Below are positions 1,427 to 52,219 of a stretch of 57,811 nt of DNA, one piece after another. Below the pieces are notes generated by a model, which was not told the origin of the DNA, did not search any database, and was given only the letters and a program-made list of their open reading frames with translations. Source of the stretch: Escherichia phage vB_EcoS_AVIO78A. Position numbers and translations under genes: made by a program. The stretch is taken from sequence record MZ726797.1; one strand, given 5' to 3'. Every line of letters starts with the position of its first letter. Position 1 is the first letter of the stretch.

Positions 1427-1470
1427 AATTTACACGTCCTTGTGTAATCCGTCAAGAATTATTTTAAATA
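1427..1470 (-). promoter_or_regulatory. conserved sigma70-like promoter (UP element AAAATAATTC, -35 TTGACG, 17 bp spacer, -10 TAAATT)
   Basis: member of 14-copy motif family; correct distance upstream of a minus-strand gene. Confidence 0.6.
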
Positions 1471-1491
1471 AAACCCCGGAACTAACCGGGG
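1461..1491 (-). terminator. intrinsic terminator (minus strand)
   Basis: hairpin CCCCGG-AACTAA-CCGGGG followed by T-rich tract on minus strand, directly after stop of 1501..1836. Confidence 0.5.
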
Positions 1492-1500
1492 AAATGTTCA

Positions 1501-1836
1501 TTATTCGCCCAACGCTTCTTTCAACAACCGATACGTTTCAGGACATTTGCCGGATCCGCGTTCACGTTCATAAGCTGCACTAATAGCGTCCCAGTTTTCA
1601 ATCACCCCTTTAAACGCCGGACACTTTTCAGCAATCAATGGAAAACTGTTTCTGATTTCTGGCACAGCTTCAACCAGGAACCAACAACGACGGAAATCGG
1701 CAACATCCCGTGGTGCATGAAATCCCCAATCACCACCCATTTCATTACCTGTGTGAATACACACCATCGTTTTAGAACTCAGTCCCGTTTCACCAGAACA
1801 TAACCACTGAATAATACGTTCCTGTTCTGTTTTCAT
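1501..1836 (-). CDS. hypothetical protein
   Basis: ORF track; stop/start overlap with rdgC-like gene. Confidence 0.5.
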
Positions 1837-2747
1837 CGTTTAGCTTCCCCACCCAAAGCAGTGATAAGTTGTTTGATCAGCGCTGAAAGTTCACCTGTCA
1901 TTAGTACAAAATCAGCGTCAAATCGTGCCAGAACATCTTCAAGGTCAATATCGTCATTCTGTCCGATCAGTTCATCACAGAACTTCACACGGTTTAATGT
2001 CATGCTGTCAGTTAGCGTAAACGTTACCCGCTGCTGCCAGTCCAGAGCCAGCTTTGTAACGACTTTCCCTGCTTCAATATGTGTGGCTATTTCATCACTG
2101 GTTAAATCCTGTTTTTTAACGCGTGCAACACCACCATCAGCCAGGATCGCTTTCAGTTCAGCAGCGTCACCCATTGTGAAACCTGTTGGCGCGTTTCCTG
2201 AACGTACCCACTCCGTTGTTGTCAGTTCAACAGGGTTTTCAGTTGTCAGTGGGACTACAGGCAGACTACCCAGGGATTTACGTAACAGCGCTAACGCATC
2301 TTCAGCCCGTTTAGCACTGGGCGCATCAACCACAATCAACCCGTTAGTGATGTCGATCCACAACTGTGTACGACTGTTTTTAACGAACGCCCGTGGTAAC
2401 AGACTGTGCAACACTTCATCTTTCAGCGCGTCTTTCTCTGTTTTCTTCAGCTTACGCGCCTGTTCAGCTTCCAGTTTGGCGATTCGCGCGTTCAGATGCT
2501 GTTTAATGACCGGACCCGGAATAATCTTTTCCTGTTTCTGGATGGTCAGCAGATATTGCCCGTTAGCCTGGTGAACCAGTGTCCGATGTTGTTCAGTTGC
2601 CGGAACCCATCCAGTACGCGCCATATCCTGTGAACCACATGGATTGAATTGAAACGCACACAAGCTGTCTTCCAGCGTTGGCAACTGGGCCATTAATTGC
2701 ATCGGGTTAGTCAGACGATAAATGATTGCATTTTTAAAGAAGTTCAT
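1833..2747 (-). CDS. rdgC: recombination-associated protein RdgC homolog
   Basis: near full-length similarity to enterobacterial RdgC, e.g. [55 protein letters not shown]. Confidence 0.85.
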
Positions 2748-2941
2748 AGTTCAATGTCCTGTGGTTTGATAGTAACTTTTCCGTCAAGAACAACAGTGTT
2801 TACACCACTTAGTTTTTGTTCTTCGTATAAATCAAGTTCAACATTAATTCCGACGATTGAGGCTTCGTGTATCGCACAGTTTAACTGTTTAATGAGGTCT
2901 GAAATTCTACGCTGATAATCTTGTGCTTCTGATAGTTTCAT
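2744..2941 (-). CDS. hypothetical protein
   Basis: ORF track; overlapping stop/start with neighbours. Confidence 0.45.
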
Positions 2942-3135
2942 ACACCACCTTCATTTTTAATATATTCAGCAACTAAATCTTTGACTTCTACAATTTTAAC
3001 AGCACCGTTATAATCAACCTGAATATGACAGTGACCATAACGCGCCGCTGTTAACCTGGCGTCGTTCAGTATTTTTAAATCTTTCAATACTTGTTCAATT
3101 GCTTGTTGTTTAATCACAGATTCGTGCACAGTCAT
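2938..3135 (-). CDS. hypothetical protein
   Basis: ORF track; ATGA overlap with upstream small gene. Confidence 0.45.
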   Translation of the reverse strand: MTVHESVIKQQAIEQVLKDLKILNDARLTAARYGHCHIQVDYNGAVKIVEVKDLVAEYIKNEGGV

Positions 3136-3287
3136 TTCCGGTTCCTTCTTTTCTTCGCCTCACGTCGGGCTTTTGCAATACCTGTTTTACGATGTGGTTG
3201 TTTACGATCAGTAATAATTCCTTGTGGTGGAACGCCCCACAAAGCGTTAGCGGAACCTAATAATTTAATCGCGTAATCAAGAATCAT
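3132..3287 (-). CDS. small basic hypothetical protein (~51 aa)
   Basis: ATG start, ATGA overlaps at both ends; lysine/arginine-rich C-terminus. Confidence 0.35.
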   Translation of the reverse strand: MILDYAIKLLGSANALWGVPPQGIITDRKQPHRKTGIAKARREAKKRRNRK

Positions 3288-3550
3288 ACGTTCACCACTT
3301 TTAAATCAGGTGAAAGGCTACGATGGTCGTGATGACCGTTCGTAGTAAATGAGAAAGTGTAATCGCATTGTTCACCATCGAACGTGAAGGGGATTTGAAA
3401 CCCTGTATCGTCAGTGATGCGAACTTTAACCGGGTATTCAGCTTGCGGATCGACTGCTACAACAGTGCCGAACGGTTTAGATTTGCGACGTGCGAGAATT
3501 TCTAACAGTCGTGGACTGGTGATTTCCACGTGTTGACCAGTTTTAAACAT
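3284..3550 (-). CDS. hypothetical protein
   Basis: ORF 3284..3577 trimmed to ATG 3550 (GGAG RBS, downstream of promoter -10). Confidence 0.5.
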   Translation of the reverse strand: MFKTGQHVEITSPRLLEILARRKSKPFGTVVAVDPQAEYPVKVRITDDTGFQIPFTFDGEQCDYTFSFTTNGHHDHRSLSPDLKVVNV

Positions 3551-3582
3551 GGTGATAACTCCAGTTGTTTTACACAAACTGA

Positions 3583-3626
3583 AGTCTATCTGATAATGTG
3601 TAAACCGTCAAGAATTATTTTAAACT
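3583..3626 (-). promoter_or_regulatory. conserved promoter (-35 TTGACG, -10 TAGACT); lies inside the 3-prime end of upstream ORF
   Basis: motif family member. Confidence 0.55.
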
Positions 3627-3792
3627 GTCCATCACTGTCTGCAGCGTAACAAATACCGTGATTGTAGATTGTCGCAGTTCGTGTAATGCGTTGATAGTCT
3701 GAGCATTGGTTACGAACACGCAGGTCATACCCGGATTGTATGATTAGCCAGGTTGCAATAATGGCGAGTAATTTTAAAACGTATCTGAACAT
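3586..3792 (-). CDS. hypothetical protein with hydrophobic N-terminus (possible signal/TM)
   Basis: ORF track trimmed to ATG 3792. Confidence 0.4.
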   Translation of the reverse strand: MFRYVLKLLAIIATWLIIQSGYDLRVRNQCSDYQRITRTATIYNHGICYAADSDGQFKIILDGLHIIR

Positions 3793-3863
3793 GTTCCGCA
3801 CTCCTGTTTGATAGTTTCAGGGTAGTGCGGAACTGGCGAAGATGGTATAGGATTTACGATAAT

Positions 3864-4259
3864 TTAACAGAGGTTTCGGCTGGCGTAAAACTTTGTACCG
3901 ACTGGCATACGTTCCATGTTGAGTTTTCCACGCAGGTATTTGTATGTTTCACCGGGAGAACGTAGTTCTGCGTCACACGGTCTTTCAACAATTTCACCCA
4001 CGGGATCACCTAACGCGCCTTTCCATCCTTCCCACATTGCAGTCATAGTGATAAACCAGACACTACCTAAACTGGCTTTCTTATTCTCCCAGAACCAGTC
4101 GATGAACTCTATCGACATCCCATGCTGTTTTGCAATTTCGTAACGGTCATCCACGCTTTCAACCCTCCACCCATGTTTAGCACGATTCATAGCGGTCCGT
4201 TCATCATTCGTGGTGAACAGTACGCGCCCGGATTTATGACAAATGTTCCAAGTCGTCAT
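3864..4259 (-). CDS. hypothetical protein
   Basis: ORF track. Confidence 0.5.
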   Translation of the reverse strand: MTTWNICHKSGRVLFTTNDERTAMNRAKHGWRVESVDDRYEIAKQHGMSIEFIDWFWENKKASLGSVWFITMTAMWEGWKGALGDPVGEIVERPCDAELRSPGETYKYLRGKLNMERMPVGTKFYASRNLC

Positions 4260-4311
4260 TTCGCTAATACACCAATAATGAAAATTAGCATGTAGAATAA
4301 AACATTACGGG

Positions 4312-4470
4312 TCATAATTCATAAACCTTAAAACTACCGCCTGAATAGCGATGTTTATTACACAACTTACAACGGTGTTCCTGAGTGGCGTAATTACGTT
4401 CATCACCGTGGGTAGTACGATATAAATACCATTCGTGTTTACAGAATAATCGTTTGAGAAATATCTTCAT
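4312..4470 (-). CDS. small Cys/His-containing protein (possible zinc ribbon, ~52 aa)
   Basis: ATG with strong GAGGAGGGG RBS; CxxH...CxxC spacing; below ORF-track cutoff. Confidence 0.45.
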   Translation of the reverse strand: MKIFLKRLFCKHEWYLYRTTHGDERNYATQEHRCKLCNKHRYSGGSFKVYEL

Positions 4471-4473
4471 AGT

Positions 4474-4668
4474 TCAATAACCCCTCCTCGACTGGTAATC
4501 AATTTTCTTCAGTGATTGTTGCACAATCTGCCAGGACGATAACATGAATAATTGCGCGTATTGCCCCAGTGCTAAATTTCGTGGTTTATCCTGATAAGCG
4601 TAAATCGTCGCAACATCATCAGCTTCCAGACGGATCCGCCACGGTGTCAGAGTTGGTTTATCGCCCAT
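4474..4668 (-). CDS. hypothetical protein
   Basis: ORF 4474..4704 (TTG) trimmed to ATG 4668; overlaps upstream stop. Confidence 0.45.
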   Translation of the reverse strand: MGDKPTLTPWRIRLEADDVATIYAYQDKPRNLALGQYAQLFMLSSWQIVQQSLKKIDYQSRRGY

Positions 4669-4993
4669 GTTCGATGCTCTCCAGTAGTTCACGAATGTTT
4701 TCAATTACACGTTGTTTTGTCTGAGTAGTGACACACACCCCATCAGTGCGACCGAACGTATTCAGGACCGTTTGAAGCATGTAAGTCATAAGTTCAGTAT
4801 TATAAAGTTTTACGAATATTGAAAGATCGCCACCAATTTCAACAGTGTCTACATCATCTTCAAAATATGAAAATGTAGTGTCTTTAAAATGAACACAGTA
4901 AACGGCATTTTGCCCGTATTCAGGTTGTGCATTACGTTCAAGACGAACGGTAAGAACTTCTTTAAATAATCCGTTGTGGTCTTTAATTTTCAT
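4658..4993 (-). CDS. hypothetical protein
   Basis: ORF 4658..5038 trimmed to ATG 4993 with AGGAG RBS. Confidence 0.5.
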   Translation of the reverse strand: MKIKDHNGLFKEVLTVRLERNAQPEYGQNAVYCVHFKDTTFSYFEDDVDTVEIGGDLSIFVKLYNTELMTYMLQTVLNTFGRTDGVCVTTQTKQRVIENIRELLESIEHGR

Positions 4994-5025
4994 ACCTGTG
5001 TTACTCCTGTTCAATTGATGATCAG

Positions 5026-5069
5026 AGTCTGACACCACCTCTGTAATCTGTCAAGAATTATTTTAAACC
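5026..5069 (-). promoter_or_regulatory. conserved promoter (-35 TTGACA, weak -10)
   Basis: motif family member upstream of the 4993 gene. Confidence 0.5.
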
Positions 5070-5130
5070 TCTGTTACCACCTGTCACCCGTGGTAAACTG
5101 TACAGAACAGTTACAAACGGACCGACAATC

Positions 5131-6894
5131 ATGAATAAGTTTACTGGAAATATTCATAATTACCCGCGTTGGCGGGATGCTTACGCAAACGACGAACGTA
5201 TCTGGCGAAAAGGTCAGCCACGCCCGGATTACAAACAGTGTTACATTGACCGTATTAACCTGTTAAATCGTATGCGCACGGATCGGGCAATTGTCCCGGT
5301 ACTGAAAAAGTATTACGAAACAAACCCGGTAGCGTTTATCCTCGACTGGGCGTTTACTTACGACCCGCGTAACGTCGGTACTGAATATCCACCCAACATG
5401 CCTTTCTGCCTTTTTGAACGTCAAATCGACATGGTTCAGTTTGTTTACGAAGCGCTTGAAGATAAAGAGAAAGGGCTTTGGGAAAAATCGCGAGATTACG
5501 GTGCAACCTGGGTAGCCTGTGGCTTGTCCGTGTGGGCGTGGCTGTATCGTCCTGGTTCTTCAGTTGGCTGGGGATCACGTAAAGAACAGCTTGTTGATAA
5601 ACTGGGCGACCCGGATAGTATTTTTGAAAAGATTCGCCAGATTATTCGCGCATTACCACCAGAATTACGCCCTGTTGGTCTGCGTGAAAAAGACCATCTG
5701 GTTTATATGAAATGTATCAACCCTGAAAACGGTGCGACAATTACTGGTGAAGCTGGTGACAACATTGGTCGTGGTGGTCGTAAATCTGTTTACTTTCTCG
5801 ACGAAGCGGCACACGTAGATCGTCCTGAACTGATCGAAGCGTCGTTGTCAGCTAACACCAACGTCCGTATTGATATCAGTTCGGTTAATGGCGTTGGTAA
5901 CGTTTTTTATCGTAATCGTAAAGCTGGTCTGGAGTGGGAACCGGGCAAAAAATTACCTCGTGGTAAATTGCGTGTTATGGTTCTGGACTGGCGCGATCAC
6001 CCAGCTAAAGATGACGAATGGTATAAGCGAGAAAAACAATCTTTCGCTGAAAAAGGTTTACAGCATATTTTCGCACAGGAAGTTGACCGCGATTATGCCG
6101 CTGCTGTTCAGGGCGTGTTGATTAAAGCTGAATGGGTACGCGCTGCTTTTGATGCTTTCCGTGACACAGAATGGCGCAAAGCTAATGGACTACTTACACC
6201 AACAGGTCAACGTATCGCCGGACAGGACGCAGCAGACGGTGGTGAAGATGCCAGTGCGCTGGTAATTGCTCACGGTGTATTCCTGACACATCTGCAACTT
6301 GACCACAGGGGCGCTGAACTGGCTGCACCAGGAATGTTGACTATGGCTAATATGCTGGGTGTTGATGAATACTGGTACGAAGTTAACGGTGTTGGTACAG
6401 GCGTTAAAGTAGCGGCAAATGACCGAAAAGATACTTTACGCTTCCGTGTGCGTCCGTGGTTACCGAATGGAAAAGTTGTGGATCCGGGCGGTGATATTAT
6501 CGGTGGTACGAAACCTGGCGATAAAGACCGTAAATCAAACAAAGATTATTTCTCAAATTATAAAGCACAGGCATCGTGGGCGTTACGCTTGCGTTGTCAG
6601 CGAATTTATAAATGGTATGTGGAAGGTCAACCACAGGATCCAGACGAAATCATTCTGATTGATCCATCACTGGAAAATGCACAACGGTTAGAAGCTGAGT
6701 TAAGTCAGCCAACGTATACAAGTAACGGTGCCGGGAAGATTGTGATCGACAAAAAACCAAATGGAAGTAAGTCGCCAAACTTTTTCGATGCTGCGGTTAT
6801 TGCACTATCACCAAAACGTACCGAATTCGTTGAAGAACCGTTTACTGGCGGTGTGAATCCTGTTGGTACTCCTGAATATGGTGACATTTTTTAA
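5131..6894 (+). CDS. terminase large subunit
   Basis: 587 aa following TerS-like gene; ATPase-like segment KSRDYGATW and acidic FLDEAAH motif; followed by terminator. Confidence 0.75.
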   Translation: MNKFTGNIHNYPRWRDAYANDERIWRKGQPRPDYKQCYIDRINLLNRMRTDRAIVPVLKKYYETNPVAFILDWAFTYDPRNVGTEYPPNMPFCLFERQIDMVQFVYEALEDKEKGLWEKSRDYGATWVACGLSVWAWLYRPGSSVGWGSRKEQLVDKLGDPDSIFEKIRQIIRALPPELRPVGLREKDHLVYMKCINPENGATITGEAGDNIGRGGRKSVYFLDEAAHVDRPELIEASLSANTNVRIDISSVNGVGNVFYRNRKAGLEWEPGKKLPRGKLRVMVLDWRDHPAKDDEWYKREKQSFAEKGLQHIFAQEVDRDYAAAVQGVLIKAEWVRAAFDAFRDTEWRKANGLLTPTGQRIAGQDAADGGEDASALVIAHGVFLTHLQLDHRGAELAAPGMLTMANMLGVDEYWYEVNGVGTGVKVAANDRKDTLRFRVRPWLPNGKVVDPGGDIIGGTKPGDKDRKSNKDYFSNYKAQASWALRLRCQRIYKWYVEGQPQDPDEIILIDPSLENAQRLEAELSQPTYTSNGAGKIVIDKKPNGSKSPNFFDAAVIALSPKRTEFVEEPFTGGVNPVGTPEYGDIF

Positions 6895-6901
6895 ACAGTG
6901 T

Positions 6902-6931
6902 GGCGGGAATATTCCCGCCCGTTTTCTTTTT
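6902..6931 (+). terminator. intrinsic terminator after terminase gene
   Basis: GGCGGGAATATTCCCGCC hairpin plus T-rich tract. Confidence 0.65.
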
Positions 6932-6968
6932 AATTCTTGACAAATTACATTATAAATGTTTGTAAATT
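6922..6968 (+). promoter_or_regulatory. candidate promoter of accessory operon (UP-like, -35 TTGACA, -10 uncertain)
   Basis: resembles the conserved promoter family but spacer to a good -10 is atypical. Confidence 0.35.
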
Positions 6969-7055
6969 ATCTGTTAGATTAATGTAACACGTCTATACTC
7001 CTGTAGGTAACCAATCGGTTACAGTTAATTAACATTCTCTCACAGGAGTTTCAAC

Positions 7056-7160
7056 ATGTCTGACATGACTTTAGTTCCCACTGGCGGTTTCGGCGGTGAA
7101 GCTGGCGCGGCTGCACTTGGCGGTGGTATCGGTGGTCTTATCGGTTCCTGGTCGCGGTAA
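7056..7160 (+). CDS. short Gly-rich ORF (34 aa) overlapping start of next gene; possible leader or frameshift partner
   Basis: ATG with AGGAG RBS at correct spacing; translation MSDMTLVPTGGFGGEAGAAALGGGIGGLIGSWSR. Confidence 0.35.
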   Translation: MSDMTLVPTGGFGGEAGAAALGGGIGGLIGSWSR

Positions 7161-7713
7161 CTTTGGTGGTCCTGTAGAAGTTCAAGCCTCTGTAGATACC
7201 AACGCTATTCTGCAAGCTATCAATAACGGTACTCTTCAGACCATTCAGGGTCAGAATGGTACTAACCTGACTGTTGAACGCTCAGCAGCTTCTACCTATA
7301 ACGGTCTGACCCAACAGAACACACAAAACCTGCTGGCAAACGTTCAAGGTTTTGCAGGTCTGAACACGCAGATTCAACAGGGTACTAACACTGTGACCAA
7401 TGCGATCTGTGCATCTGAAACTGCGGCACTGACTCGTTCTTTCCAGGCACAGTTAGCGGCTGAGAAGTGTTGCTGCGAAACCAACCTGAATATCGAACGT
7501 CAGGCAGAAGCAACTCGTGCACTGATCCGTGACCAGTTCGCACAGTCTCAGGCTGTTCTGATTTGTGACCTGAAATCTCAGATTCAAACGCGTGACTTCC
7601 AGTTGTCTCAATTGTCACAAACGTCTCAGTTGGCGTGCAAAATTAACCAGGTCGATCAGCTTATTAACTTCAAGCTGCCTACTCCGCAAACTCCACCGAC
7701 TGGCTGCTGCTAA
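7096..7713 (+). CDS. Gln/Asn/Thr-rich Cys-containing protein with signal-peptide-like N-terminus
   Basis: ORF track (GTG start, no internal Met); N-terminus KLARLHLAVVSVVLSV; C-terminal GCC; start ambiguous. Confidence 0.45.
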   Translation: MKLARLHLAVVSVVLSVPGRGNFGGPVEVQASVDTNAILQAINNGTLQTIQGQNGTNLTVERSAASTYNGLTQQNTQNLLANVQGFAGLNTQIQQGTNTVTNAICASETAALTRSFQAQLAAEKCCCETNLNIERQAEATRALIRDQFAQSQAVLICDLKSQIQTRDFQLSQLSQTSQLACKINQVDQLINFKLPTPQTPPTGCC

Positions 7714-7763
7714 TTGGTCAACTAAGCGCCTCTGTACGGGGCGCTTTAACAGGAGATAAGAGT

Positions 7764-8123
7764 ATGCATTACAAACCGTATTACGTTATCAAAAAAGACG
7801 ATGATGACGATGAAGAGGAAGATGTAGAAATTCATCACCATCATCATTATCACCACGGGCATCACCCGGACACGACGGGAGTATTTCATCATGATAGCTA
7901 TGCTGGCGAACATGGTTCAGTTATGGCCCATGTTAAAGCACGTATGGATAACCCTCCTTCGACTTGGGCGTCGTACCACGATAAGCCCGGCGGGATGATG
8001 TCCATTGTTGAAATGGAATATCGCGAACTGATGGAAGAAAAAGCCGAAGGTTCGACGTCTGGTATTAAAAAAGAGCTAACGGATCTGGCTGCAGCCTGTA
8101 TCAACGCGCTTAAAAAGATGTAA
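7764..8123 (+). CDS. Asp/Glu- and His-rich protein (possible metal-binding)
   Basis: ATG with AGGAGA RBS; DDDDDEEEDVEIHHHHHYHHGHH tract. Confidence 0.55.
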   Translation: MHYKPYYVIKKDDDDDEEEDVEIHHHHHYHHGHHPDTTGVFHHDSYAGEHGSVMAHVKARMDNPPSTWASYHDKPGGMMSIVEMEYRELMEEKAEGSTSGIKKELTDLAAACINALKKM

Positions 8124-8139
8124 CTAACAGGAAACCGAC

Positions 8140-8637
8140 ATGCAGAATATTAACGCAGGTATGGGTGTCACCCAGTTTAACGGTATGAAACCGCGAAGCA
8201 CTATTAACATTGGTGGTGTGGAGTGGTCATTACGTCGGGATGCCACTGACTCAACAACAATGTTTCCTCACCCGAAGGTAAGCTGGCTTAACGCTGGTTG
8301 TGAACCGATGGGTGATGGTCGTTTTCATTACTGTTGGATTTTGGGTGTGATTCCCCCGACACCGGGGACAATCGAACGACCTGTTAATGTGATGTATGTT
8401 GGTTTCCATCAATTTAAAATTAATATCGCACCTAATTCAATTAGTCAGGCTGATTTAGACAGGATGCATGTTTATGTCAGCGATACTTCTCATTTTGCTG
8501 GTGAATTTGTCAGTAAGTTTTTAGGTACAGAACCTGTGGAAACTCGTGAAAATATCAGCCCGTGGCCCCCGATGAATGATCCTCGTGAGCAACCAAAAGT
8601 AGCCAAAAATAAGGTAAACGAAGATGACGAAGAATGA
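8140..8637 (+). CDS. hypothetical protein
   Basis: ORF track with RBS; acidic C-terminus. Confidence 0.5.
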   Translation: MQNINAGMGVTQFNGMKPRSTINIGGVEWSLRRDATDSTTMFPHPKVSWLNAGCEPMGDGRFHYCWILGVIPPTPGTIERPVNVMYVGFHQFKINIAPNSISQADLDRMHVYVSDTSHFAGEFVSKFLGTEPVETRENISPWPPMNDPREQPKVAKNKVNEDDEE

Positions 8638-8878
8638 AGGGGTAGACAAAGTAGTCGAAAGTCTGGGGTTACGAGCACACGTAATCGTAGACGAAGGTCA
8701 CAGTCAAGAAGCGATCATGAAGTCGGCATTTAACGATTTTAAAGCGTTGGGTTCTATGAGCGGGATCATGGCAGTGATGACTACCGGGAAATTAAGTCAG
8801 CAACAGTTAGATCTGGCACAACGTATCGCTGTGAAAGTAATTGCCGTTTTAGGTCTTAAAGAGTCAGAAAAAGCGTAA
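8624..8878 (+). CDS. hypothetical protein
   Basis: ORF track; overlaps previous gene end. Confidence 0.5.
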   Translation: MTKNEGVDKVVESLGLRAHVIVDEGHSQEAIMKSAFNDFKALGSMSGIMAVMTTGKLSQQQLDLAQRIAVKVIAVLGLKESEKA

Positions 8879-18645: not shown

Positions 18646-18689
18646 AAGATACACCACCGCTTGTAATCCGTCAAGAATTATTTTAAAGA
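18646..18689 (-). promoter_or_regulatory. conserved promoter (-35 TTGACG, -10 TATCTT)
   Basis: motif family member. Confidence 0.6.
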
Positions 18690-18960
18690 TACAGTTAATA
18701 CAGAACGTGTACTAACTGTACATGGTTTTACATAGGTTTCATGATTTTGAGTTGCAGCTAATACAGAACGTGTATTAGTAGATCATAGATTCATAGATCA
18801 CGTCATGTTTATTTTTTAACCGATCCTTCTCTATCTTATTCTTTTTATTATCTTTTTATAGATAACATAGAAAACATAAATAAATAGAAGAGTAGTATAA
18901 GTAGTAAAAGTTGCTGCAAGTAGGAGAGGTTTAAAAGGTATAGAGAGTCGCATACTTCCC
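18690..18960. repeat. non-coding AT-rich region with direct repeats (TAATACAGAACGTGTAYTA x2) and a ~95 bp element also present at 57715..57811
   Basis: direct comparison of 18801..18905 with 57715..57811. Confidence 0.6.
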
Positions 18961-18969: not shown

Positions 18970-19013
18970 TACGTAAAATAATTCTTGACGGATTACATCG
19001 ACACAACTACCCT
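18970..19013 (+). promoter_or_regulatory. conserved promoter, rightward (-35 TTGACG, -10 TACCCT)
   Basis: motif family member upstream of head gene block. Confidence 0.55.
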
Positions 19014-19043: not shown

Positions 19044-19391
19044 ATGGATCCGAACATCAGGGTTGCTACAGACGAATTCATTCGTCGCGCCCGTAAAATT
19101 CACGGTGATCGTTACGACTACTCATTCAGCATTGTTGAAGATAGTTCCAGTACAGTGGTTATTATTGACCGTGAAACTAATACAGTGTTTTTCCAGGTTG
19201 TCGCTGAACATCTGGACGGTGTTGAACCAGTAACCACTGCTGTTGAACCGGTAACGACTGCTGTTGAGCCGATCAAGAATCTTTCTGAGATATTCAGTAA
19301 CGTCATAAACAGCGTGTATCACCAGTGCAATTATTCATCTGAAATGTTAGAATTTAGTCATGTTGAAACAATACGAGGACAATCCCCGTGA
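19044..19391 (+). CDS. hypothetical protein with EPVTTAV tandem repeat
   Basis: ORF 19014..19391 trimmed to ATG 19044 with AAGAAGGG RBS. Confidence 0.5.
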   Translation: MDPNIRVATDEFIRRARKIHGDRYDYSFSIVEDSSSTVVIIDRETNTVFFQVVAEHLDGVEPVTTAVEPVTTAVEPIKNLSEIFSNVINSVYHQCNYSSEMLEFSHVETIRGQSP

Positions 19392-22496: not shown

Positions 22497-22515
22497 TAAC
22501 AACTGTGGTATCATT

Positions 22516-22545
22516 AAGGGGTGGCTTATGCTGCCCCTTTTTTCA
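22516..22545 (+). terminator. intrinsic terminator after capsid gene
   Basis: AAGGGGTGGC..GCTGCCCCTT hairpin plus T6. Confidence 0.7.
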
Positions 22546-22912: not shown

Positions 22913-23389
22913 CCTATTGTTAAGTCAGTGACAGAACTGCATAGCAGACACTATCACTTAATCGGTCGAAAGACGCCGGATAAACGTAACCGGCACATAA
23001 CAGATAAGAGCATTGAGTCGATAATCGTGAAGAGTCGGCGCGCCTGGTTAGCCAGTGCTCTTATCGTTGTGGTGAATTGCAGTTCTCAGAAACAACCAGA
23101 AGATAAGCGCCTGGCACTGCAACCAAACACTCGCTGATAAGGAGGTGATCCTTATCTTGCTGGCGGGAAAGCCGCAAATCGTGGGTAAAGCATGTTGTGA
23201 AACATCCTGAACTGCGTGTCGTTTTACATAACTGGTTATTCACGTGTCACGCATAGGGGTATGTTGGGACGTCAGGTGTGGATGACCAGTTATGTAAAAC
23301 CCTCATTATCACCCAGAGCCATTTGCCGTCTGTTTAAGACGGCTTTTTTTCGTGCTAATATAACGAAAACATTTCTCACAGGTGATCAC
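22913..23389 (+). other. ~480 bp apparently non-coding, highly structured region (nested inverted repeats, consensus SD-like TAAGGAGGTGATC, terminator-like hairpin at ~23324..23350)
   Basis: direct reading; no convincing ORF with RBS. Confidence 0.45.
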
Positions 23390-26542: not shown

Positions 26543-26568
26543 GCCCCGGACAGTTCCGGGGCTTTTTT
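26543..26568 (+). terminator. intrinsic terminator (identical hairpin to 9066)
   Basis: GCCCCGGACAGTTCCGGGGC plus T6. Confidence 0.7.
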
Positions 26569-26569: not shown

Positions 26570-26737
26570 TTAGCGTTTGGCGAGATAGTCACAACGGGCG
26601 ATTGCTAAATCTGCAGTCTTGTACGAAGACTCACTTGTTGAATGGGTTGTTCCAATAACCATTACATGATATCCGTCTTTGTTTTTTAGAACCCAAAACT
26701 TACCGTTTTCATGAATAATATTTTTCTCTTTGGTCAT
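26570..26737 (-). CDS. small hypothetical protein (55 aa) inserted between major tail and chaperone genes
   Basis: ATG with GAGGATAA RBS about 25 nt downstream of conserved promoter; MTKEKNIIHENGKFW. Confidence 0.45.
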   Translation of the reverse strand: MTKEKNIIHENGKFWVLKNKDGYHVMVIGTTHSTSESSYKTADLAIARCDYLAKR

Positions 26738-26768
26738 CGTCTTATCCTCAGTTCGTTTCGTTGAGTTA

Positions 26769-26812
26769 AAGATACCTTAACAGGTGCAATTCGTCAAGAA
26801 TTATTTTAAATC
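26769..26812 (-). promoter_or_regulatory. conserved promoter (-35 TTGACG, -10 TATCTT)
   Basis: motif family member. Confidence 0.55.
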
Positions 26813-27607: not shown

Positions 27608-27664
27608 ATATATTATGGTTAACGTGTTAAACTGCGTACATGCTTCACGAAAAGGTTAACCAAC

Positions 27665-34463: not shown

Positions 34464-36499
34464 ATCAATCCGTAAACGACATTGTGTATCGTGACGTCGC
34501 CAACAACAGAGGAAACATTAAAATTAATTTCAGCTTTGTAAGCTCCTGGTGGAACGCAATCCACCAAAGCATAAAAATTGAATGTGCCCCCTACTGGGAT
34601 GTTATACCCTATGGAATTTGCGACAGCATTTCCAGCCTGGTCCAGAAATCTAATTGTCGCTAGGGTTGTTGTTGCATTTTTAGCCCAAAAACCAAACTGG
34701 AAATATCTACCAGGCTCACAATCAATAACTGATTGAGTGAAGTTAGCTGAAGCATCTGCGGAGGGAACATTAATAATTATTGATGTTGAGAACATCATGT
34801 CATTAGGTACGTCATTGTTATATGATGCCGTAACAACACCTGTACCAGTTTGCGAGAGTGTCCAGTTAGATATGTTAAAAAACTGTCCTGAGCCATTACT
34901 AATACTATTAATATAAGGGCTTACAATGCACCCTAAATTCCAGTTACTTGTGATAAATCCTGCCCGTGGATAGCACCCTCTGGACATTACTTTTTTGCTC
35001 GCGCCACCTATCAACTGCCTGGTAGGGAATCCAGTGGCAATAGTAGTGTTCCCGTACAAAGGCAGGGAGCAATTGCTAAGAATAACCACGCCGTCATCGT
35101 TACTTACCACAGGAACAGAACTAAATCCGACAGGCAGTAATACTGTTGAGTCTTTGATGCTTAATCTTGAACTTCCTGCAACGGTAAAGCCAACAAAACT
35201 CTGACCAGGTTGATATTCTATATTTCCGTTGGAAAAAACAACCGTAGCACTATCTGATAATGCTATAGCAGGGTCGAAATAATCTGCTTTCTTACCAGCA
35301 GGAAGTGAGCAGCTATCGAATATAAATTGACCATTAACAAACGTGAAAGGTCCGCCGTTGTCAACCATCCAGCAGTGATTAAATTTTATAACCTCACCTG
35401 AATTCGCTGGTGAATTGAAAATAGCAGAATTTGTAAAACTTCTGGACAACGTACATTTATCAAAAAGGATACGATATGCATTATCAAGAAACTCAATTCC
35501 GGCAGTTGAGATAAACCCACTATTAGAGATTCTTAACTCTGATACTTCACCACTAGTAGAACCACCGATAGCCAATTTCCTGGTCCCTTTTCCAACAAAT
35601 GACACACCACTCATCAAAGCATTTGCGTTAACTGCATCTCTGTTAGTGTAATCCGCGCCTGTATTAATAATGGTTAGGTAGTAGTCACCCGTTACGGAAG
35701 CAGATTCTGTTAAAGTGCATTTATTTTTTCCAATAAGTGCGCCTTTTGCTATGTCTAAAACAATCGGTGTTGTTATCTCACCAGAAACAGGGACTACACA
35801 GTCAAATCCGGCAGAATTTATTTTGTTGATGAATACCGCCAAATCTTCGGTCCCAGTATAGCCAGCATCATACACATCCACGGTGCCATTGAAGAATTTT
35901 CTTTTCCATACCACCCCACTTCCTGAGAAGGTAACAATATTGTCTATAGTGGTATCCTCGCTAACAGCTACCATAATACCACCGCCAAGATTAAACCCGC
36001 TCACATACGAGTCAAGAATTATGGAATCGCCGATTGATCCTGATATTGATGATAACTCAGAAACTGATGATACAGTCCCTATATAAGACAAACCATTTGA
36101 TTTGTTTAAATCAGAACGTAACATTAAATCCGTCTGATTAACCCAGTGTGTAGCATCAATACCACCCGTAGTTGCAGGTGTTGAACCAGGTGGAACAATT
36201 TTAGGCAATGCACCCATCCACTGATAATAATTACCCTCTGATTCATATAATAGAGTTTCCCAACGATGATTTATCGTACCACCTGCTTCAAAAGAACCAT
36301 CAGCAGGTTTAAAACCAACCGAACTAAAAAAACCATCAAGCGTCGGATTAGTAACTGATTCGCCACGGATTGTATCTGTCACTTCCAGTGCAGGATTACC
36401 AGCAGCATCACGACTTTTCGCAACGTGTTCAATATGTAAAATCGCTTGTTTGCCTGTTTTCAAATCATCAGCACTGATATAATCGTTACAGTTAGCCAT
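34460..36499 (-). CDS. tail fibre / tailspike-like receptor-binding protein, reverse-oriented; composition suggests beta-helix (possible depolymerase)
   Basis: ORF 34460..36526 (TTG) trimmed to ATG 36499 with GGAGA RBS; 679 aa Gly/Ser/Asn/Thr-rich. Confidence 0.5.
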   Translation of the reverse strand: MANCNDYISADDLKTGKQAILHIEHVAKSRDAAGNPALEVTDTIRGESVTNPTLDGFFSSVGFKPADGSFEAGGTINHRWETLLYESEGNYYQWMGALPKIVPPGSTPATTGGIDATHWVNQTDLMLRSDLNKSNGLSYIGTVSSVSELSSISGSIGDSIILDSYVSGFNLGGGIMVAVSEDTTIDNIVTFSGSGVVWKRKFFNGTVDVYDAGYTGTEDLAVFINKINSAGFDCVVPVSGEITTPIVLDIAKGALIGKNKCTLTESASVTGDYYLTIINTGADYTNRDAVNANALMSGVSFVGKGTRKLAIGGSTSGEVSELRISNSGFISTAGIEFLDNAYRILFDKCTLSRSFTNSAIFNSPANSGEVIKFNHCWMVDNGGPFTFVNGQFIFDSCSLPAGKKADYFDPAIALSDSATVVFSNGNIEYQPGQSFVGFTVAGSSRLSIKDSTVLLPVGFSSVPVVSNDDGVVILSNCSLPLYGNTTIATGFPTRQLIGGASKKVMSRGCYPRAGFITSNWNLGCIVSPYINSISNGSGQFFNISNWTLSQTGTGVVTASYNNDVPNDMMFSTSIIINVPSADASANFTQSVIDCEPGRYFQFGFWAKNATTTLATIRFLDQAGNAVANSIGYNIPVGGTFNFYALVDCVPPGAYKAEINFNVSSVVGDVTIHNVVYGLI

Positions 36500-37235: not shown

Positions 37236-37245
37236 GATAACAATC

Positions 37246-39879: not shown

Positions 39880-39918
39880 TGTTATCGCCTCAATAAGTTT
39901 TAAATAATTCTATACGGT

Positions 39919-41855: not shown

Positions 41856-42887
41856 TCAGTAACCGTTACCGTTGAGAAAATTCGGGGCCGGGGTGGTCAT
41901 TACCATATAACCGTTAGCGATCAGTTGTTCATCGTTCCAACCTTGCGCAATAAACTGTTCGTAAGTTGCACCACCTGCTTTTTCAGTCATTACTTTTACA
42001 GGTGCTGCCGCTGGTGTAGGCGTTGCTACAGGTGCTGCCGCTGGTGTAGGCGTTGCTACAGGTGCTGCCGCTGGTGTAGGCGTTGCTACAGGTGCTGCCG
42101 CTGGTGTAGGCGCTGCTACAGGTGCTGCCGCTGGTGTAGGCGTTGCTACAGGTGCTGCCGCTGGTGTAGGCGTTGCTACAGGTGCTGCCGCTGGTGTAGG
42201 CGTTGCTACAGGTGCTGCCGCTGGTGTAGGCGCTGCTACAGGTGCTGCCGCTGGTGTAGGCGCTGCTACAGGTGCTGCCGCTGGTGTTACGCCGATCGGA
42301 CGTGCACCTTCAGGCATTGCAGGAGCAGCACCGAACACAGATGCAGGAGCCGGACCAGAAATGATTTCTTCACCCGCATAAAGCAATTGCGCCATTTCCA
42401 TGTTGATATATACGCCAGCCTGATTACCTGTACGACCGTTTGCAACAGATGATCCGCTGATACGGTAGTAATAACCTTTTTTCGCCAGATTTTTATCAAT
42501 AACTGGCTGGTACGCTGCGTTATAAACCGGACACGCATCAATAGCCACGTTGCGTGAGAAACCAATTACCCAGTGACCAGCATAACCAGTTTTACTCGCA
42601 TGTTTCGGATCGTCACCGTTAATAATTTTCCATGCGAAAGTGGGTTGTTGTGGTTCGCCGTTCACATAGTGTGAGTTAGCCACTCGCATAATCGCCTGGA
42701 ATACCGCACCCAGTTCACCTTGTTCTTCCCACCAGTTCGCCGCTGTTTTAGGAAACGCCAGGCCAACCCACCAGTTGTGTTTTTCAGGTGCTAACGGTTT
42801 ATTTTCGTGGTCATGAGTGTTGATATCGAAAAAAGAACCGCCAACCAGACGACCAACCGGAGTTACAAAAGATTCTTTCTGTGCCAT
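41856..42887 (-). CDS. ssDNA-binding protein-like (DUF2815-like N-domain) with Pro/Ala repeat linker and conserved C-terminal motif
   Basis: VGRL...FPK pattern; PAAAPVA[TA]PT x ~9.5; C-terminal TYEQFIAQGWNDEQL. Confidence 0.5.
   Translation of the reverse strand: MAQKESFVTPVGRLVGGSFFDINTHDHENKPLAPEKHNWWVGLAFPKTAANWWEEQGELGAVFQAIMRVANSHYVNGEPQQPTFAWKIINGDDPKHASKTGYAGHWVIGFSRNVAIDACPVYNAAYQPVIDKNLAKKGYYYRISGSSVANGRTGNQAGVYINMEMAQLLYAGEEIISGPAPASVFGAAPAMPEGARPIGVTPAAAPVAAPTPAAAPVAAPTPAAAPVATPTPAAAPVATPTPAAAPVATPTPAAAPVAAPTPAAAPVATPTPAAAPVATPTPAAAPVATPTPAAAPVKVMTEKAGGATYEQFIAQGWNDEQLIANGYMVMTTPAPNFLNGNGY
41996..42288. repeat. tandem 30-bp repeat (~9.5 copies) encoding the Pro/Ala linker
   Basis: GGTGCTGCCGCTGGTGTAGGCG[T/C]TGCTACA repeated contiguously. 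Confidence 0.9.
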
Positions 42888-44800: not shown

Positions 44801-44832
44801 TACGTTTTCCTCTTGTTGTTTGGTTGTCGCTA

Positions 44833-44876
44833 ACTTTAAAAGGTGTTGTGCAATCTGTCAAGAATTATTTTACACT
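44833..44876 (-). promoter_or_regulatory. conserved promoter (-35 TTGACA, -10 TAAAGT), proximal of tandem pair
   Basis: motif family member. Confidence 0.6.
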
Positions 44877-44894
44877 CGCCTTTCGTTGATGCAG

Positions 44895-44939
44895 ATGTTA
44901 GAGGAATAAGTTGCAATGCGTCAAGAACTATTTTAAACT
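44895..44939 (-). promoter_or_regulatory. conserved promoter (-35 TTGACG, -10 TAACAT), distal of tandem pair
   Basis: motif family member. Confidence 0.55.
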
Positions 44940-44970
44940 TTTTTCACGATTCGATATTACAGGGTAGAAA

Positions 44971-46632: not shown

Positions 46633-46673
46633 TGGTAATCTGCATAGAAATATTTTAAACGTAAGGAACTGTA

Positions 46674-47668: not shown

Positions 47669-47838
47669 ATACTGAACGCATCGAACGTCTGCAAAAACTG
47701 ATTGATAACCACGGTATTGAAGCTGTTGCCAAACGTCTGAACGTTACTGAAATTCATGTTAAACGTAATCTGCTTACCGGGCGATCTGCTATCAACCTGG
47801 TCAAACTGATGGCTGCTGAACGTCAGTTCGGAGCGTAA
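47665..47838 (+). CDS. small helix-turn-helix protein (57 aa)
   Basis: ATGA overlap with previous stop; ends 4 nt before primase start; AVAKRLNVTEIHVKRNL. Confidence 0.5.
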   Translation: MNTERIERLQKLIDNHGIEAVAKRLNVTEIHVKRNLLTGRSAINLVKLMAAERQFGA

Positions 47839-47841
47839 ATT

Positions 47842-50196: not shown

Positions 50197-50210
50197 TCAT
50201 TGCACAAGGA

Positions 50211-50255
50211 TGTGTAAAATAATTCTTGACGAATTACAGATGTGTACGCTATAGT
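50211..50255 (+). promoter_or_regulatory. conserved promoter, rightward (-35 TTGACG, -10 TATAGT)
   Basis: motif family member; followed by AAGGAG RBS and ATG 50287. Confidence 0.6.
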
Positions 50256-50286
50256 CTGTACATCAAGTGAACAAGGAGTGATTGTT

Positions 50287-50499
50287 ATGAAACCACGCTA
50301 CCGATTAATGAGACTTTCACAGTGTCCTAACGGAACACGGTTTTATTTTTATCGTCTGAAGCAACTATTACCTTTCACGTTAATTGCTAACAGTTTCAAG
50401 AAACACGAAAGTATTTATCACGAGGGTCATGATTTTAATATAACCGCGCGAAAATACAGAACGTCTATTCATAAACTTGTGTGGGCTAAGGTGAACTAA
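50287..50499 (+). CDS. hypothetical protein
   Basis: ORF 50242..50499 trimmed to ATG 50287. Confidence 0.45.
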   Translation: MKPRYRLMRLSQCPNGTRFYFYRLKQLLPFTLIANSFKKHESIYHEGHDFNITARKYRTSIHKLVWAKVN

Positions 50500-50501
50500 T
50501 T

Positions 50502-50741
50502 ATGGGTGGTCGTGGGTCATGTCGTCGAACTCGTTCGTTACGTTGTAGCAAATGTTATGAGCGAAATCTACGTGACTATCTTTTAGGATACGGTGCTCGT
50601 AACTGGGAAAACGTTGAAGTTACTGGTGAAAATGGAAACACTTACACCTGCCGTTGTGAATCCTGTGGTCACACTTATCAAACAACATCAGCGGCTGCAC
50701 GTCGCGAATGGAAGTGGAAGAAAAACCATGTTAATAACTAG
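50502..50741 (+). CDS. zinc-finger protein
   Basis: CSKC...CRCESCGH. Confidence 0.45.
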   Translation: MGGRGSCRRTRSLRCSKCYERNLRDYLLGYGARNWENVEVTGENGNTYTCRCESCGHTYQTTSAAARREWKWKKNHVNN

Positions 50742-50973
50742 TATTTTCATACTTGTATTTTGGATAATCATCGTTATACGTATAATTATTTGTGCTGTCA
50801 TACAAAGAAAAATGATTGATTTTTATTATTCTGATGAAAGTGGTTGGGACACACATCAACAGAGCATTTTTGATGCTTACCCACAATTAGATACTTTCAA
50901 AATGATTTTTAAATTCTGGGTATGGCCTATGTCAAAATTCTATCCTGAATACAGGAAAGGTAAAAAACCATGA
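50728..50973 (+). CDS. small membrane protein
   Basis: ORF 50593..50973 trimmed to ATG 50728; hydrophobic N-terminus. Confidence 0.4.
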   Translation: MLITSIFILVFWIIIVIRIIICAVIQRKMIDFYYSDESGWDTHQQSIFDAYPQLDTFKMIFKFWVWPMSKFYPEYRKGKKP

Positions 50974-51167
50974 AAAACATATTTGACCGTTTAATTACTG
51001 CTATTGTTTTCCTTGTATCCGTAACGCTCGCGTCTTGCATTGTCGGACTAATGACCCGTGGTAATCATGCGGAAACACCGTGGTGGTTTCTGGCAGGTCT
51101 TGGATTATTAGCGGCTGCTGCATCAATTGGCGCTTGCATGTGGGGAGTGAAAAACGATCATGACTGA
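50970..51167 (+). CDS. small membrane protein (2 TM)
   Basis: ORF track. Confidence 0.45.
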   Translation: MKNIFDRLITAIVFLVSVTLASCIVGLMTRGNHAETPWWFLAGLGLLAAAASIGACMWGVKNDHD

Positions 51168-51375
51168 GTTCGGTGCTGTAATCAAAAAAGAAGACCGTTA
51201 TGCACATATTGATACCCGGATTACCTGGGTTGATATCAGTGAAGCTACCCTGTTCAGTTCAACTTACATGGCTGGAGTTGCACTTAAAGCACTTCGCGAT
51301 CAGGGTTTCAATTGTAAAAAAGTAACAATCGCGCCTGTTAAAATCACACGAATTGTCGAGGAGACAGAAGGATGA
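51160..51375 (+). CDS. hypothetical protein
   Basis: ORF track. Confidence 0.4.
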   Translation: MTEFGAVIKKEDRYAHIDTRITWVDISEATLFSSTYMAGVALKALRDQGFNCKKVTIAPVKITRIVEETEG

Positions 51376-51767
51376 TAATAGTCGTCACTGGTGGTCGTGA
51401 CTTCAACGACAGAACAGCAGTGTTTTCCGCGTTAGGACTACTTCACAAACAATTTCCGATTACCGAACTAATCGAAGGTGGTGCGTCAGGTGTTGATAAC
51501 CTGTGTAAGCAGTGGGCGCAATTACACGGTATTCCTGTGCGTAGTTGCCCGGCAGCATGGGACGATCTGACTGTACCGGGTGTGGTTGTAAAACAAGGTA
51601 AGTACGGGCCTTATAACGCTGTTGCAGGTCATCAACGCAATCAGGCAATGTTAGAGGGTGAACCACGGCCTACATACGGTGTTGTGTTCCCCGGTGGGCG
51701 AGGTACTGCTGATATGCACCGTCGCATGTTGAAAGCTGGTTTAACTGTGTGGGTTCCGTATGGTTGA
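51372..51767 (+). CDS. SLOG-superfamily (DUF2493/LOG-like) nucleotide-binding protein
   Basis: MIIVVTGGRDF, GGASGVD, FPGGRGT Rossmann-like motifs. Confidence 0.5.
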   Translation: MIIVVTGGRDFNDRTAVFSALGLLHKQFPITELIEGGASGVDNLCKQWAQLHGIPVRSCPAAWDDLTVPGVVVKQGKYGPYNAVAGHQRNQAMLEGEPRPTYGVVFPGGRGTADMHRRMLKAGLTVWVPYG

Positions 51768-52182
51768 TAGTTTCAGTGGTGAATATCGTTGGTTAAGTAA
51801 TTTTTGGCCTGTACCTGTCAACTATGATGGGTACGTTTTTAAAACGGTGGAACATGCTTATCAAGCGCTGAAATGTAAATATTATAATGACTTTCTGGAG
51901 GTTAAAAACTGTGACACACCCGGTCAGGCTAAACGTCTTGCACGTCAAAAAATCATGCGTGACGACTGGGAACAAATTAAAACTCAGGTGATGTTTTATC
52001 TTCTGCAGCAGAAATTTTCTAACCCTAAAATGTGGGCTTTACTCGTTGCCACAGGTGATCAACCAATCGTTGAAGGTAACGAGTGGGGTGATACATTCTG
52101 GGGTGTTTGCAGTGGTAAAGGTGAAAATCATTTAGGTAAAATGATAATGGCTATTCGCGCCGGATATCAAACTTACCTTTAA
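51760..52182 (+). CDS. NADAR-domain protein (YbiA-like)
   Basis: WLSNFW near N-terminus, EHAYQALK, FWGVC - pattern typical of NADAR/DUF1768. Confidence 0.55.
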   Translation: MVDSFSGEYRWLSNFWPVPVNYDGYVFKTVEHAYQALKCKYYNDFLEVKNCDTPGQAKRLARQKIMRDDWEQIKTQVMFYLLQQKFSNPKMWALLVATGDQPIVEGNEWGDTFWGVCSGKGENHLGKMIMAIRAGYQTYL

Positions 52183-52219
52183 AATAGTTCTTGACAGATT
52201 ACCAACCCTCCCCGATAAT
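52176..52219 (+). promoter_or_regulatory. conserved promoter, rightward (-35 TTGACA, 17 bp, -10 GATAAT)
   Basis: best sigma70 match of the family. Confidence 0.65.

Follow-up and report, generated by a model that had tools for sequence, protein, structure and literature searches.

The question raised by the genome of Escherichia phage vB_EcoS_AVIO78A (record MZ726797.1; its whole stretch of 57,811 nt is called the window below) is what role is played by a 26-bp block that recurs, almost unchanged, in front of many of its gene blocks. The original prediction, made from the sequence alone, regarded the block as a fourteen-copy family of host sigma-70 promoters with a poor -10 element, possibly needing a phage factor. 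We estimate at about 0.8 the probability that the unmodified host RNA polymerase reads the 13 strong copies as promoters of the sigma-70 type, which most likely constitute an early (pre-replicative) class; this estimate is derived from sequence analysis.

The consensus of the block is TTTAAAATAATTC-TTGACR-NATTRCA, which spans positions -13 to +12 when counted from the first T of TTGAC; when the copies are aligned on TTGAC, the information content is 1–2 bits per position within the block and falls to background on either side. That the repeated element is real was confirmed by a search with AAAATAATTCTTGACR, which gave 13 copies in the window at one mismatch or fewer and 15 matches at three mismatches or fewer, a level at which 100 shuffled sequences gave 2.3 on average and never more than 8. 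The block is the top-ranked non-tandem repeat of the genome. The matches at 39901 and 51949, with three mismatches each, were judged not to be family members. Ten copies lie on the minus strand (1450, 3606, 5049, 11086, 13309, 14915, 18669, 26792, 44856 and 44919) and three near-exact ones on the plus strand (18975, 50216 and 52181). All positions listed originally were correct if a strand-specific reference point is allowed for, i.e., the first T of TTGAC for 18985, 50226, 52191 and 6937 on the plus strand and the low end of the 16-mer for those on the minus strand. The number fourteen holds with a reservation: 13 copies are near-exact, and the fourteenth, at 6937 (+), is real but degenerate (TTTTTAATTC-TTGACA-AATTACA).

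The anatomy of the block is that of a promoter. Each of the 13 strong copies, like the degenerate one, has a TTGACR hexamer at the -35 position, directly preceded by TC as in the extended tcTTGACat consensus, and an invariant A-tract, AAAATAAT, is found at about -45 to -38, where the proximal subsite of an upstream (UP) element would lie. No conserved distal UP subsite was found, the information being near zero upstream of -48 in the aligned window copies. The heptamer NATTRCA following the -35 is conserved as strictly as the -35 itself, with TT-R-C nearly invariant.

A TAnnnT -10 hexamer is located 17 or 18 bp after the -35 in 13 of 13 strong copies. For a quantitative check, we pooled 57 copies from the window, its relatives Sergei, 9NA and PDP46, and the Klebsiella phage Carvaje. 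In these five genomes, the best -10 follows a 17-bp spacer in 41 copies, an 18-bp spacer in 13 and a 16-bp spacer in 3. Of the 57 copies, 51 retain T-12, 56 retain A-11 and 52 retain T-7, and the mean -10 score is 4.5 bits, compared with -1.6 to -2.3 in shifted control windows. The -10 hexamers, which match the consensus at three to five of six positions, have therefore kept the critical bases, and their description as poor has to be withdrawn. A promoter having a consensus -35, optimal spacing and such a -10, as in lambda PL and T7 A1 (both GATACT), requires no activator, and the -10 found here is good enough to dispense with one because it is combined with a consensus -35 at optimal spacing. 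The consensus -35, the A-tract at the proximal UP position and the -10 at 17–18 bp thus support the original assignment to a single class of the host sigma-70 type, as far as sequences can tell.

Orientation and distance to genes point in the same direction. As originally claimed, every copy precedes a gene block: 14 of 14 copies are co-oriented with a downstream gene bearing a Shine-Dalgarno sequence, and the first T of the -35 is 57–64 nt from the start codon in 12 of 14, a spacing from which leaders of 21–28 nt are predicted. The order of modules would therefore be the UP-like A-tract AAAATAAT, the extended -35 tcTTGACR, a 17–18-bp spacer starting with NATTRCA, and the TAnnnT -10; transcription would start about 7 nt past the -10, often at the A of CAT, and the leader of about 21–28 nt with its Shine-Dalgarno sequence would lead into the first gene. 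At orthologous junctions in 9NA and Carvaje, the block is unchanged, and the spacers and leaders have drifted while the position and key bases of the -10 have stayed. Site-specific variants are also kept at orthologous sites, e.g., TTGACA-CATTGCA before the dUTPase cassette, and GATTACC, which is found both at 52191 and at the corresponding site of 9NA. Since such variants persist, the uniformity among copies is ascribed to purifying selection and not to continual homogenisation. We consider the anatomy, orientation, spacing, enrichment and conservation under purifying selection to be established by these comparisons; from them we infer initiation at these sites, its strength and early timing, contact of the A-tract with the C-terminal domain of the polymerase alpha subunit, and any role of NATTRCA.

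The same data bear on the quite different idea that the block is a replication, packaging or partition site or a selfish repeat, whose hexamers are coincidental. Copies 7 and 8 in the list below form a perfect 24-bp inverted pair with arms 288 bp apart, flanking a repeat-rich non-coding region, and the phage encodes a ParB-like protein, both of which would suit a site of this kind. However, all fourteen copies face a gene whose start codon is at a near-fixed distance, a position-specific TAnnnT has been held while the spacers drift, and the copies, instead of being clustered, stand at the heads of operons throughout the genome; we consider this idea extremely unlikely.

Whether a phage factor is required can be examined by looking for the block outside the close relatives. 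An exact-pattern scan of IMG/VR found 57 loci, 46 of which belong to 9NA-like phages, usually with 7–10 exact copies per full-length contig. Ten loci are from unrelated temperate phages of Klebsiella and Enterobacter, e.g., ST512-KPC3phi13.3, each having one copy of the block with its own -10, and one locus is from a virus carrying the block inside a tRNA cluster. In the Klebsiella/Enterobacter phages the block heads a pair of genes for an 85-aa HicB-like and a 65-aa HicA-like protein, located between the tail fibre and antirepressor genes (MK422448.1, about 3700–4300; in another contig the block is at about 6660–6682 on the minus strand). No protein homology was found between those Klebsiella phages and the window. 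We count the probable use of the same block as a single promoter in these prophages as evidence that it works outside the 9NA-like lineage, which argues against a factor specific to 9NA-like phages. Together with the adequate -10, this speaks against the proposed requirement for a phage factor.

Among one genome per bacterial species (about 100,000 species), there were only three exact matches of the block. The match in Yersinia pekkanenii (NZ_CQAZ01000023.1, about 3700–3740) is a 32-nt spacer, TTAAAATAATTCTTGACGTATTGCACTGATGT, of a clustered regularly interspaced short palindromic repeat (CRISPR) array with type I-F-like repeats, GTTCACTGCCGTACAGGCAGCTTAGAAA; the two in metagenome-assembled genomes were judged to be chance promoter look-alikes. 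The block is therefore an element of phages and not of host chromosomes. A spacer against a conserved promoter present in multiple copies would hit such a phage at many sites.

More distantly, Proteus phage RS10pmA, whose capsid protein is 61% identical, has the same interleaved gene architecture and a related family, ...TTTAAAATATGGC-TTGACA-GATTRCAGG..., of at least five copies, in which TTGACRNATTRCA is kept and the upstream part is different, indicating that TTGACRNATTRCA is older than the upstream half. No related repeat family was found in Vibrio phage VpaJT_1, whose capsid protein is 54% identical.

The strict conservation of NATTRCA raises the possibility that the block is a composite of promoter and operator, which would also bind a trans-acting phage or host protein, either at NATTRCA or at a dyad TAATTC-N5-GAATTA centred on the -35, and that this protein would shut off the whole class together or be required for it. 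It is consistent with this that NATTRCA is as conserved as the -35 and has been kept in the Proteus relative in spite of the changed upstream part, and that the phage encodes helix-turn-helix (HTH) proteins, NinH-like and ParB-like. The dyad of a dimeric repressor was tried as a candidate and weakened: its best copy in the window, 50226, reaches 14 of 17 palindromic positions, but the Proteus variant keeps ATTRCA without the left half of the dyad, having ATGGC instead of AATTC. Two non-coding regions contain clusters of 19-bp palindromes whose half-site, TARTRCA, is similar; a link of ATTRCA to them was rejected, since 9NA and Carvaje keep the promoter block and lack these palindromes. In addition, Klebsiella prophages that have no protein in common with this phage appear to use the block as a unit. 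Pfam and PHROGs scans of about 60 cassette proteins recognised no regulator family and gave only NinH-like and ParB-HTH domains, and a virulent phage's first promoters have to be active at a time when phage proteins are not yet made. We accordingly consider a composite promoter-operator unlikely.

The palindromes themselves deserve a separate description. There are eleven imperfect ones of the form TARTRCA-N5-TGYAYTA, at 17–35, 153–171, 182–200, 18696–18714, 18759–18777 and within 57528–57693, and they are common to Sergei and PDP46. They may be sites for a phage HTH protein such as the ParB-like product of 52254–53021, or part of pac or ori.

Other explanations of the sequence next to the -35 were examined and rejected. 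A bidirectional promoter using TGYAAT as an opposite-strand -10 does not fit, because four leftward and all rightward copies face no gene on that side, and there is no TG or -35 partner. A second, overlapping promoter with TTRCA as its -35 has no consistent -10 17 bp downstream in the table of 57 copies. A comparison by eye with consensus sequences gave no convincing match of the block to sites of IHF, Fis or CRP or to half-sites of the LacI family. In T4 middle promoters, a MotA box, (a/t)(a/t)(a/t)TGCTTtA, centred near -30 replaces the -35 hexamer. A middle promoter of this MotA/AsiA type was discarded, as a consensus -35 is present here, the -30 sequence is RNATTRCA, and no MotA or AsiA family member occurs among the proteins scanned. 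It is possible that NATTRCA acts through DNA shape.

Several observations weigh against taking the family simply as early host-type promoters. Identity over 26 bp across copies and genera exceeds what the known contacts of RNA polymerase explain, and we know of no polymerase contact with NATTRCA. No convincing -10 was found downstream of the copy at 6937; the helicase-primase operon, whose function is expected to be early, has no copy of the element; and the copy at 18975 would read into head genes, blurring a clean division of early and late. In the accessible literature on 9NA-like phages we found no start-site or expression data.

A megablast search placed the window in the Sashavirus/9NA-like group of virulent siphophages. 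Escherichia phage PDP46, Sashavirus BDX09P1 and KarinMuster (Bas82) are 96–97% identical to most of it; the figure is about 89–96% for Salmonella phages Sasha, Sergei and Solent, and about 84% for 9NA. Overall, the DNA of 9NA and Carvaje is about 70–85% identical, with identities of about 67–88% in high-scoring segment pairs. The window looks like a complete, circularly permuted genome, because its start coincides with that of the Sergei and Sasha records and its two ends together make one repeat-rich non-coding region. Gene order agrees with that in annotated relatives: the rightward virion genes (terS, terL, portal, prohead protein, head genes and tail genes) are interrupted by leftward small-gene blocks, and beyond the tail genes lie, in this order, a tail fibre gene (leftward), the lysis genes (rightward), the replication operon (leftward), and the helicase-primase operon and accessory arm (both rightward). 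The GenBank records of relatives that we examined annotate no promoter features. The predicted partition of this genome into transcription blocks, as the original prediction had it, is reproduced when the copies are placed on the gene map; they are listed below with their candidate -10 hexamers, the genes that each precedes, and the accompanying terminators, of which those at 1474–1491, 12536–12557 and 56675–56695 are strong intrinsic ones bounding units.

1427..1468, minus strand: copy 1; block 1443–1468, -35 TTGACG, 17-bp spacer, -10 TAAATT at 1427–1432; two small genes, 1391 to 904.
1474..1491, minus strand: intrinsic terminator ending the unit of copy 2, directly upstream of copy 1 and forming a terminator-promoter junction.
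3583..3624, minus strand: copy 2; -10 TAGACT; six genes, 3550 to 1501, including one for an RdgC-like protein; the unit ends at terminator 1474–1491.
5026..5067, minus strand: copy 3; -35 TTGACA, -10 CAGACT; four small genes, 4993 to 3864; divergent from terL (5131).
6924..6949, plus strand: degenerate copy; TTTTTAATTC-TTGACA-AATTACA, with no clear -10; directly after the terL terminator 6902–6919 and before the rightward block 7056–8878; kept in Sergei and 9NA.
11063..11104, minus strand: copy 4; -10 TATGCT; seven small genes, 11031 to 9051; divergent from the portal gene (11174).
12536..12557: terminator working in both directions, which separates the portal gene from the leftward cassette of copies 5 and 6.
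13286..13327, minus strand: copy 5; -10 TAACCT; two genes, 13255 to 12563; the unit ends at terminator 12536–12557; spacer in common with copy 1.
14891..14933, minus strand: copy 6; TTGACA-CATTGCA, 18-bp spacer, -10 TAACAT; the dUTPase gene and three more, 14856 to 13318; the variant CATTGCA is at the same position in Sergei and PDP46, and 9NA has CATTACA there.
18646..18687, minus strand: copy 7; -10 TATCTT; five to six small genes, 18617 to 17143.
18972..19013, plus strand: copy 8; -10 TACCCT; gene 19044–19391, called DUF723 in PDP46 and overlapping with the beginning of the head protease gene.
26769..26810, minus strand: copy 9; -10 TATCTT; a single 55-aa gene, 26737 to 26570, between the tail tube and tail chaperone genes.
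44833..44874, minus strand: copy 10; -10 TAAAGT; proximal member of a tandem pair, before the leftward replication and nucleotide-metabolism operon, 44800 to 37926.
44895..44937, minus strand: copy 11; AAAATAGTTC, 18-bp spacer, -10 TAACAT; distal member of the pair, 63 bp upstream and 36 bp from the start of the divergent helicase gene.
50213..50255, plus strand: copy 12; 18-bp spacer, -10 TATAGT; seven small genes, 50287–52182, including those for YAcAr/SLOG and NADAR domain proteins.
52178..52219, plus strand: copy 13; AAAATAGTTC-TTGACA-GATTACC, -10 GATAAT; about 14 genes, 52254–56667, the first for a ParB-like HTH protein; the leader has a stable hairpin (z = -5.6).
56675..56695: bidirectional terminator ending the rightward unit of copy 13.

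Ten leftward cassettes inserted between morphogenesis genes had been proposed. Between virion genes there are eight copies (1450, 3606, 5049, 11086, 13309, 14915, 18669 and 26792), each at the head of a cassette of one to seven genes, which are small genes without known function and genes of an accessory or counter-defence type; we interpret the pair 44856/44919 as a tandem promoter of a 7-kb leftward operon for DNA polymerase, annealing protein, exonuclease and methylase. The word "inserted" is not appropriate in the sense of a recent event, because leftward blocks occur at the same positions in Proteus phage RS10pmA and, in the Vibrio relative VpaJT_1, after the portal, capsid and tail-tube genes. 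The copies at 50216 and 52181 (+) head accessory blocks of the right arm; with the copy at 18975 they make three strong rightward copies before accessory blocks, and the degenerate copy at 6937 precedes a fourth rightward block. In total, about 65 of the roughly 100 genes belong to the predicted units of the 13 strong copies. Among the products, dUTPase, RdgC, a VG64/RDF-like protein, and NADAR, SLOG, HD and ParB-HTH domain proteins can be recognised, and most others are of unknown function; together with the polymerase operon, this content fits an early or accessory class.

In the right-arm units, 51372–52182 and 55628–56197 encode SLOG (YAcAr), NADAR and HD domain proteins. These domain types are often tied to the processing of nucleotide signals or ADP-ribose, and their genes here are possible counter-defence genes on the basis of domain matches. 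The first gene after the degenerate copy, 7056–7713, matches Sergei gp19 over 32 residues and then continues in another frame; the frameshift, in a glycine-rich run, is either a real pseudogene or an assembly indel.

It may further be asked whether the block, besides being a promoter, is part of a mobile regulatory cassette, i.e., a patch of homology for swapping, inserting and deleting gene cassettes as proposed for the T4-type elements discussed below, in which case part of its uniformity and distribution would reflect a recombination role. Breakpoints of homology with relatives lie at the block edges or within 3 bp of them at 5039–5042, 3598, 13329, 44872, 52178 and 1460, and 7–8 breakpoints are within 40 bp of a block against 1.2–1.3 expected genome-wide; when intergenic breakpoints alone are counted, however, the excess is weak, with 5–6 observed against 3.5–4 expected. 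On one side of the block that they share at the terL junction, PDP46 and the window differ in spacer, leader and first gene; in the terL region next to it, their identity is about 95%. Copy 8 with its gene is present in only some relatives, being missing from Sergei, 9NA and Carvaje; non-orthologous copies have spacers and leaders in common (e.g., 1455/13314 and 5054/50226); and the block occurs in unrelated prophages with no shared gene. On the other hand, the site-specific variants persisting at orthologous sites mean that copies have not been homogenised, the stem-loop half of the T4-type element is mostly missing, and recombination at the block is deduced from end points only. We hold such an additional role to be possible but rather doubtful.

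The T4-type elements are the promoter-early stem-loops (PeSL), regulatory cassettes of T4-type phages (Arbiol et al., 2010, PMC2839356; Comeau et al., 2014, PMC4122927). Like PeSL, the present element has a strong sigma-70-like early promoter (predicted here) with an AT-rich upstream part, stands before small unknown genes in variable regions among core genes, and ends each time in a Shine-Dalgarno sequence and start codon. Several end points of replacement fall at the block edges, the intergenic figures here being 5–6 versus 3.5–4 expected. Unlike in PeSL, a stem-loop or terminator is not integral: a terminator is directly upstream in 2 of 14 copies (1450 and 6937), and in 3 of 13 the spacer with its leader forms a structure more stable than that of shuffled sequences (z < -3). 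The phage is moreover an unrelated siphovirus of 58 kb with 13–14 copies, compared with about 50 for PeSL, its cassettes are transcribed against the virion genes, and NATTRCA is conserved after the -35. By analogy, the element appears to resemble the promoter half of PeSL without belonging to that family.

Early promoters of T4 and T5 and the promoters A1–A3 of T7 are read by the unmodified host sigma-70 holoenzyme and have a near-consensus -35 and an A-rich UP element in the -40s. The copies in the window are similar to these classical coliphage promoters in that the likeness among them goes beyond the two hexamers and multiple copies define an early class (predicted here from sequence); they differ in their consensus, in varying mainly in the -10 half next to an invariant -35 side, and in being dispersed through the structural genes instead of heading one early region. 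Morons of lambdoid phages are autonomous units of promoter, gene and terminator within late operons. The cassettes share with them small accessory genes having their own predicted sigma-70 promoter and sometimes a terminator, as in the single-gene unit 26570–26810; unlike morons, they belong to a virulent phage with no prophage expression, share one promoter sequence, are mostly multi-gene and on the opposite strand, and have kept their positions down to the Proteus relative and partly to the Vibrio relative. No description of these promoters was found in the searchable literature under the motif or the names of the group; a prior description is possible.

None of the rightward virion and lysis blocks has the 26-bp element, and several of them start only 33–80 bp from the back of a leftward copy. 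When their upstream regions were aligned across genera, conserved islands were found that read as extended -10 motifs without a -35. In the window, 17 of 98 genes have TGnTAnnnT at a distance of 24–70 nt upstream, where 6.6 would be expected, and the motif is kept across genera upstream of terL, portal, 16187, 22559, 23390 and holin. The candidates are as follows.

5091–5099, plus strand: candidate extended -10 upstream of terL, TGGTAAACT.
11126–11134, plus strand: candidate extended -10 upstream of the portal gene, TGATATAAC.
16148–16156 and 36475–36483, plus strand: candidate extended -10 upstream of 16187 and holin, respectively, TGATATAAT.
22506–22514, plus strand: candidate extended -10 upstream of 22559, TGGTATCAT.
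About 23353–23361, plus strand: candidate extended -10 upstream of 23390, TGCTAATAT; TGATAGAAT in 9NA and TGCTAAAAT in Carvaje.
19345–19353 and about 27625–27633, plus strand: further TGnTAnnnT motifs, candidate extended -10 without a -35.

The core virion and lysis genes presumably have, therefore, another, late class of candidate promoters. At 16148–16186 and 22506–22545, the candidate -10 is immediately 5' of a strong terminator hairpin that adjoins the start codon; a transcript from 16148 or 22506 would begin within the stem and escape termination, and transcripts from upstream would stop there.

T4 AsiA and gp39/gp76 of Thermus phage P23-45 shut off -35-dependent early promoters, and extended -10 promoters stay active. 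The arrangement in the window, with -35/UP features at the early units and TGnTAnnnT without a -35 at the virion and lysis blocks, is similar and suggests a two-class programme like those under AsiA or gp39, the switch itself being our extrapolation. Because no AsiA-like or gp39-like protein was recognised among the window proteins scanned, we offer such a switch as a hypothesis. A still bolder proposal combines it with the distribution of the block: a portable "super-promoter" would be horizontally shared by unrelated phages of Enterobacteriaceae, NATTRCA would be a new promoter element read by RNA polymerase or a conserved host factor, and the two-class design, -35/UP early and extended -10 late, would be flipped by a phage protein disabling sigma region 4 or the alpha C-terminal domain. 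We think this combination quite unlikely, and prefer to regard the 13 strong copies as early promoters for the unmodified host polymerase.

Conserved families of early promoters are well known in virulent phages. The present one is not a new system, and the current understanding of phage transcription is unchanged by it. The family gives a ready transcription map for the little-studied group of Sashavirus, Nonanavirus and Carvajevirus, with about two thirds of the genes in 13 predicted units, and its sites flag small unknown genes that are likely to function in early host takeover or counter-defence. The block is a compact and very probably strong promoter, judging from its elements, which could serve in engineering; its strict conservation also makes it a marker of the phage group and a multi-copy target, which one Yersinia CRISPR spacer already matches. 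The contrast of an invariant -35/UP at early units with the extended -10 at late ones suggests a switch mechanism that can be tested.

Some features apart from the promoters were also recorded. The region 22913–23350 (+) is a strongly structured non-coding stretch of 438 nt (z = -4.7) between a capsid-proximal gene and the neck genes, with a promoter-like site containing TTGAC before it and a terminator at its end; it has no Rfam or tRNA match, scans of the whole window likewise giving none, and Carvaje has a tRNA-Ser at the equivalent position. Two copies of a T-rich non-coding segment, about 105 bp long and about 88% identical to each other, lie at 18791–18895, upstream of the head genes, and at 57706–57811, the genome end. 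Two tandem repeats are coding and in frame: 30 bp x about 10 at 41997–42290 in the gene for a Gp2.5-like annealing protein, and 21 bp x about 5 at 56826–56915 in the leftward gene 56700–57476. Finally, the hairpin GCCCCGGACAGTTCCGGGGC is used as a terminator twice, at 9066–9085 and 26543–26562, and the hairpin GCCTCAG...CTGAGGC occurs twice, at 16158–16181 and 52211–52235, with its loop inverted.

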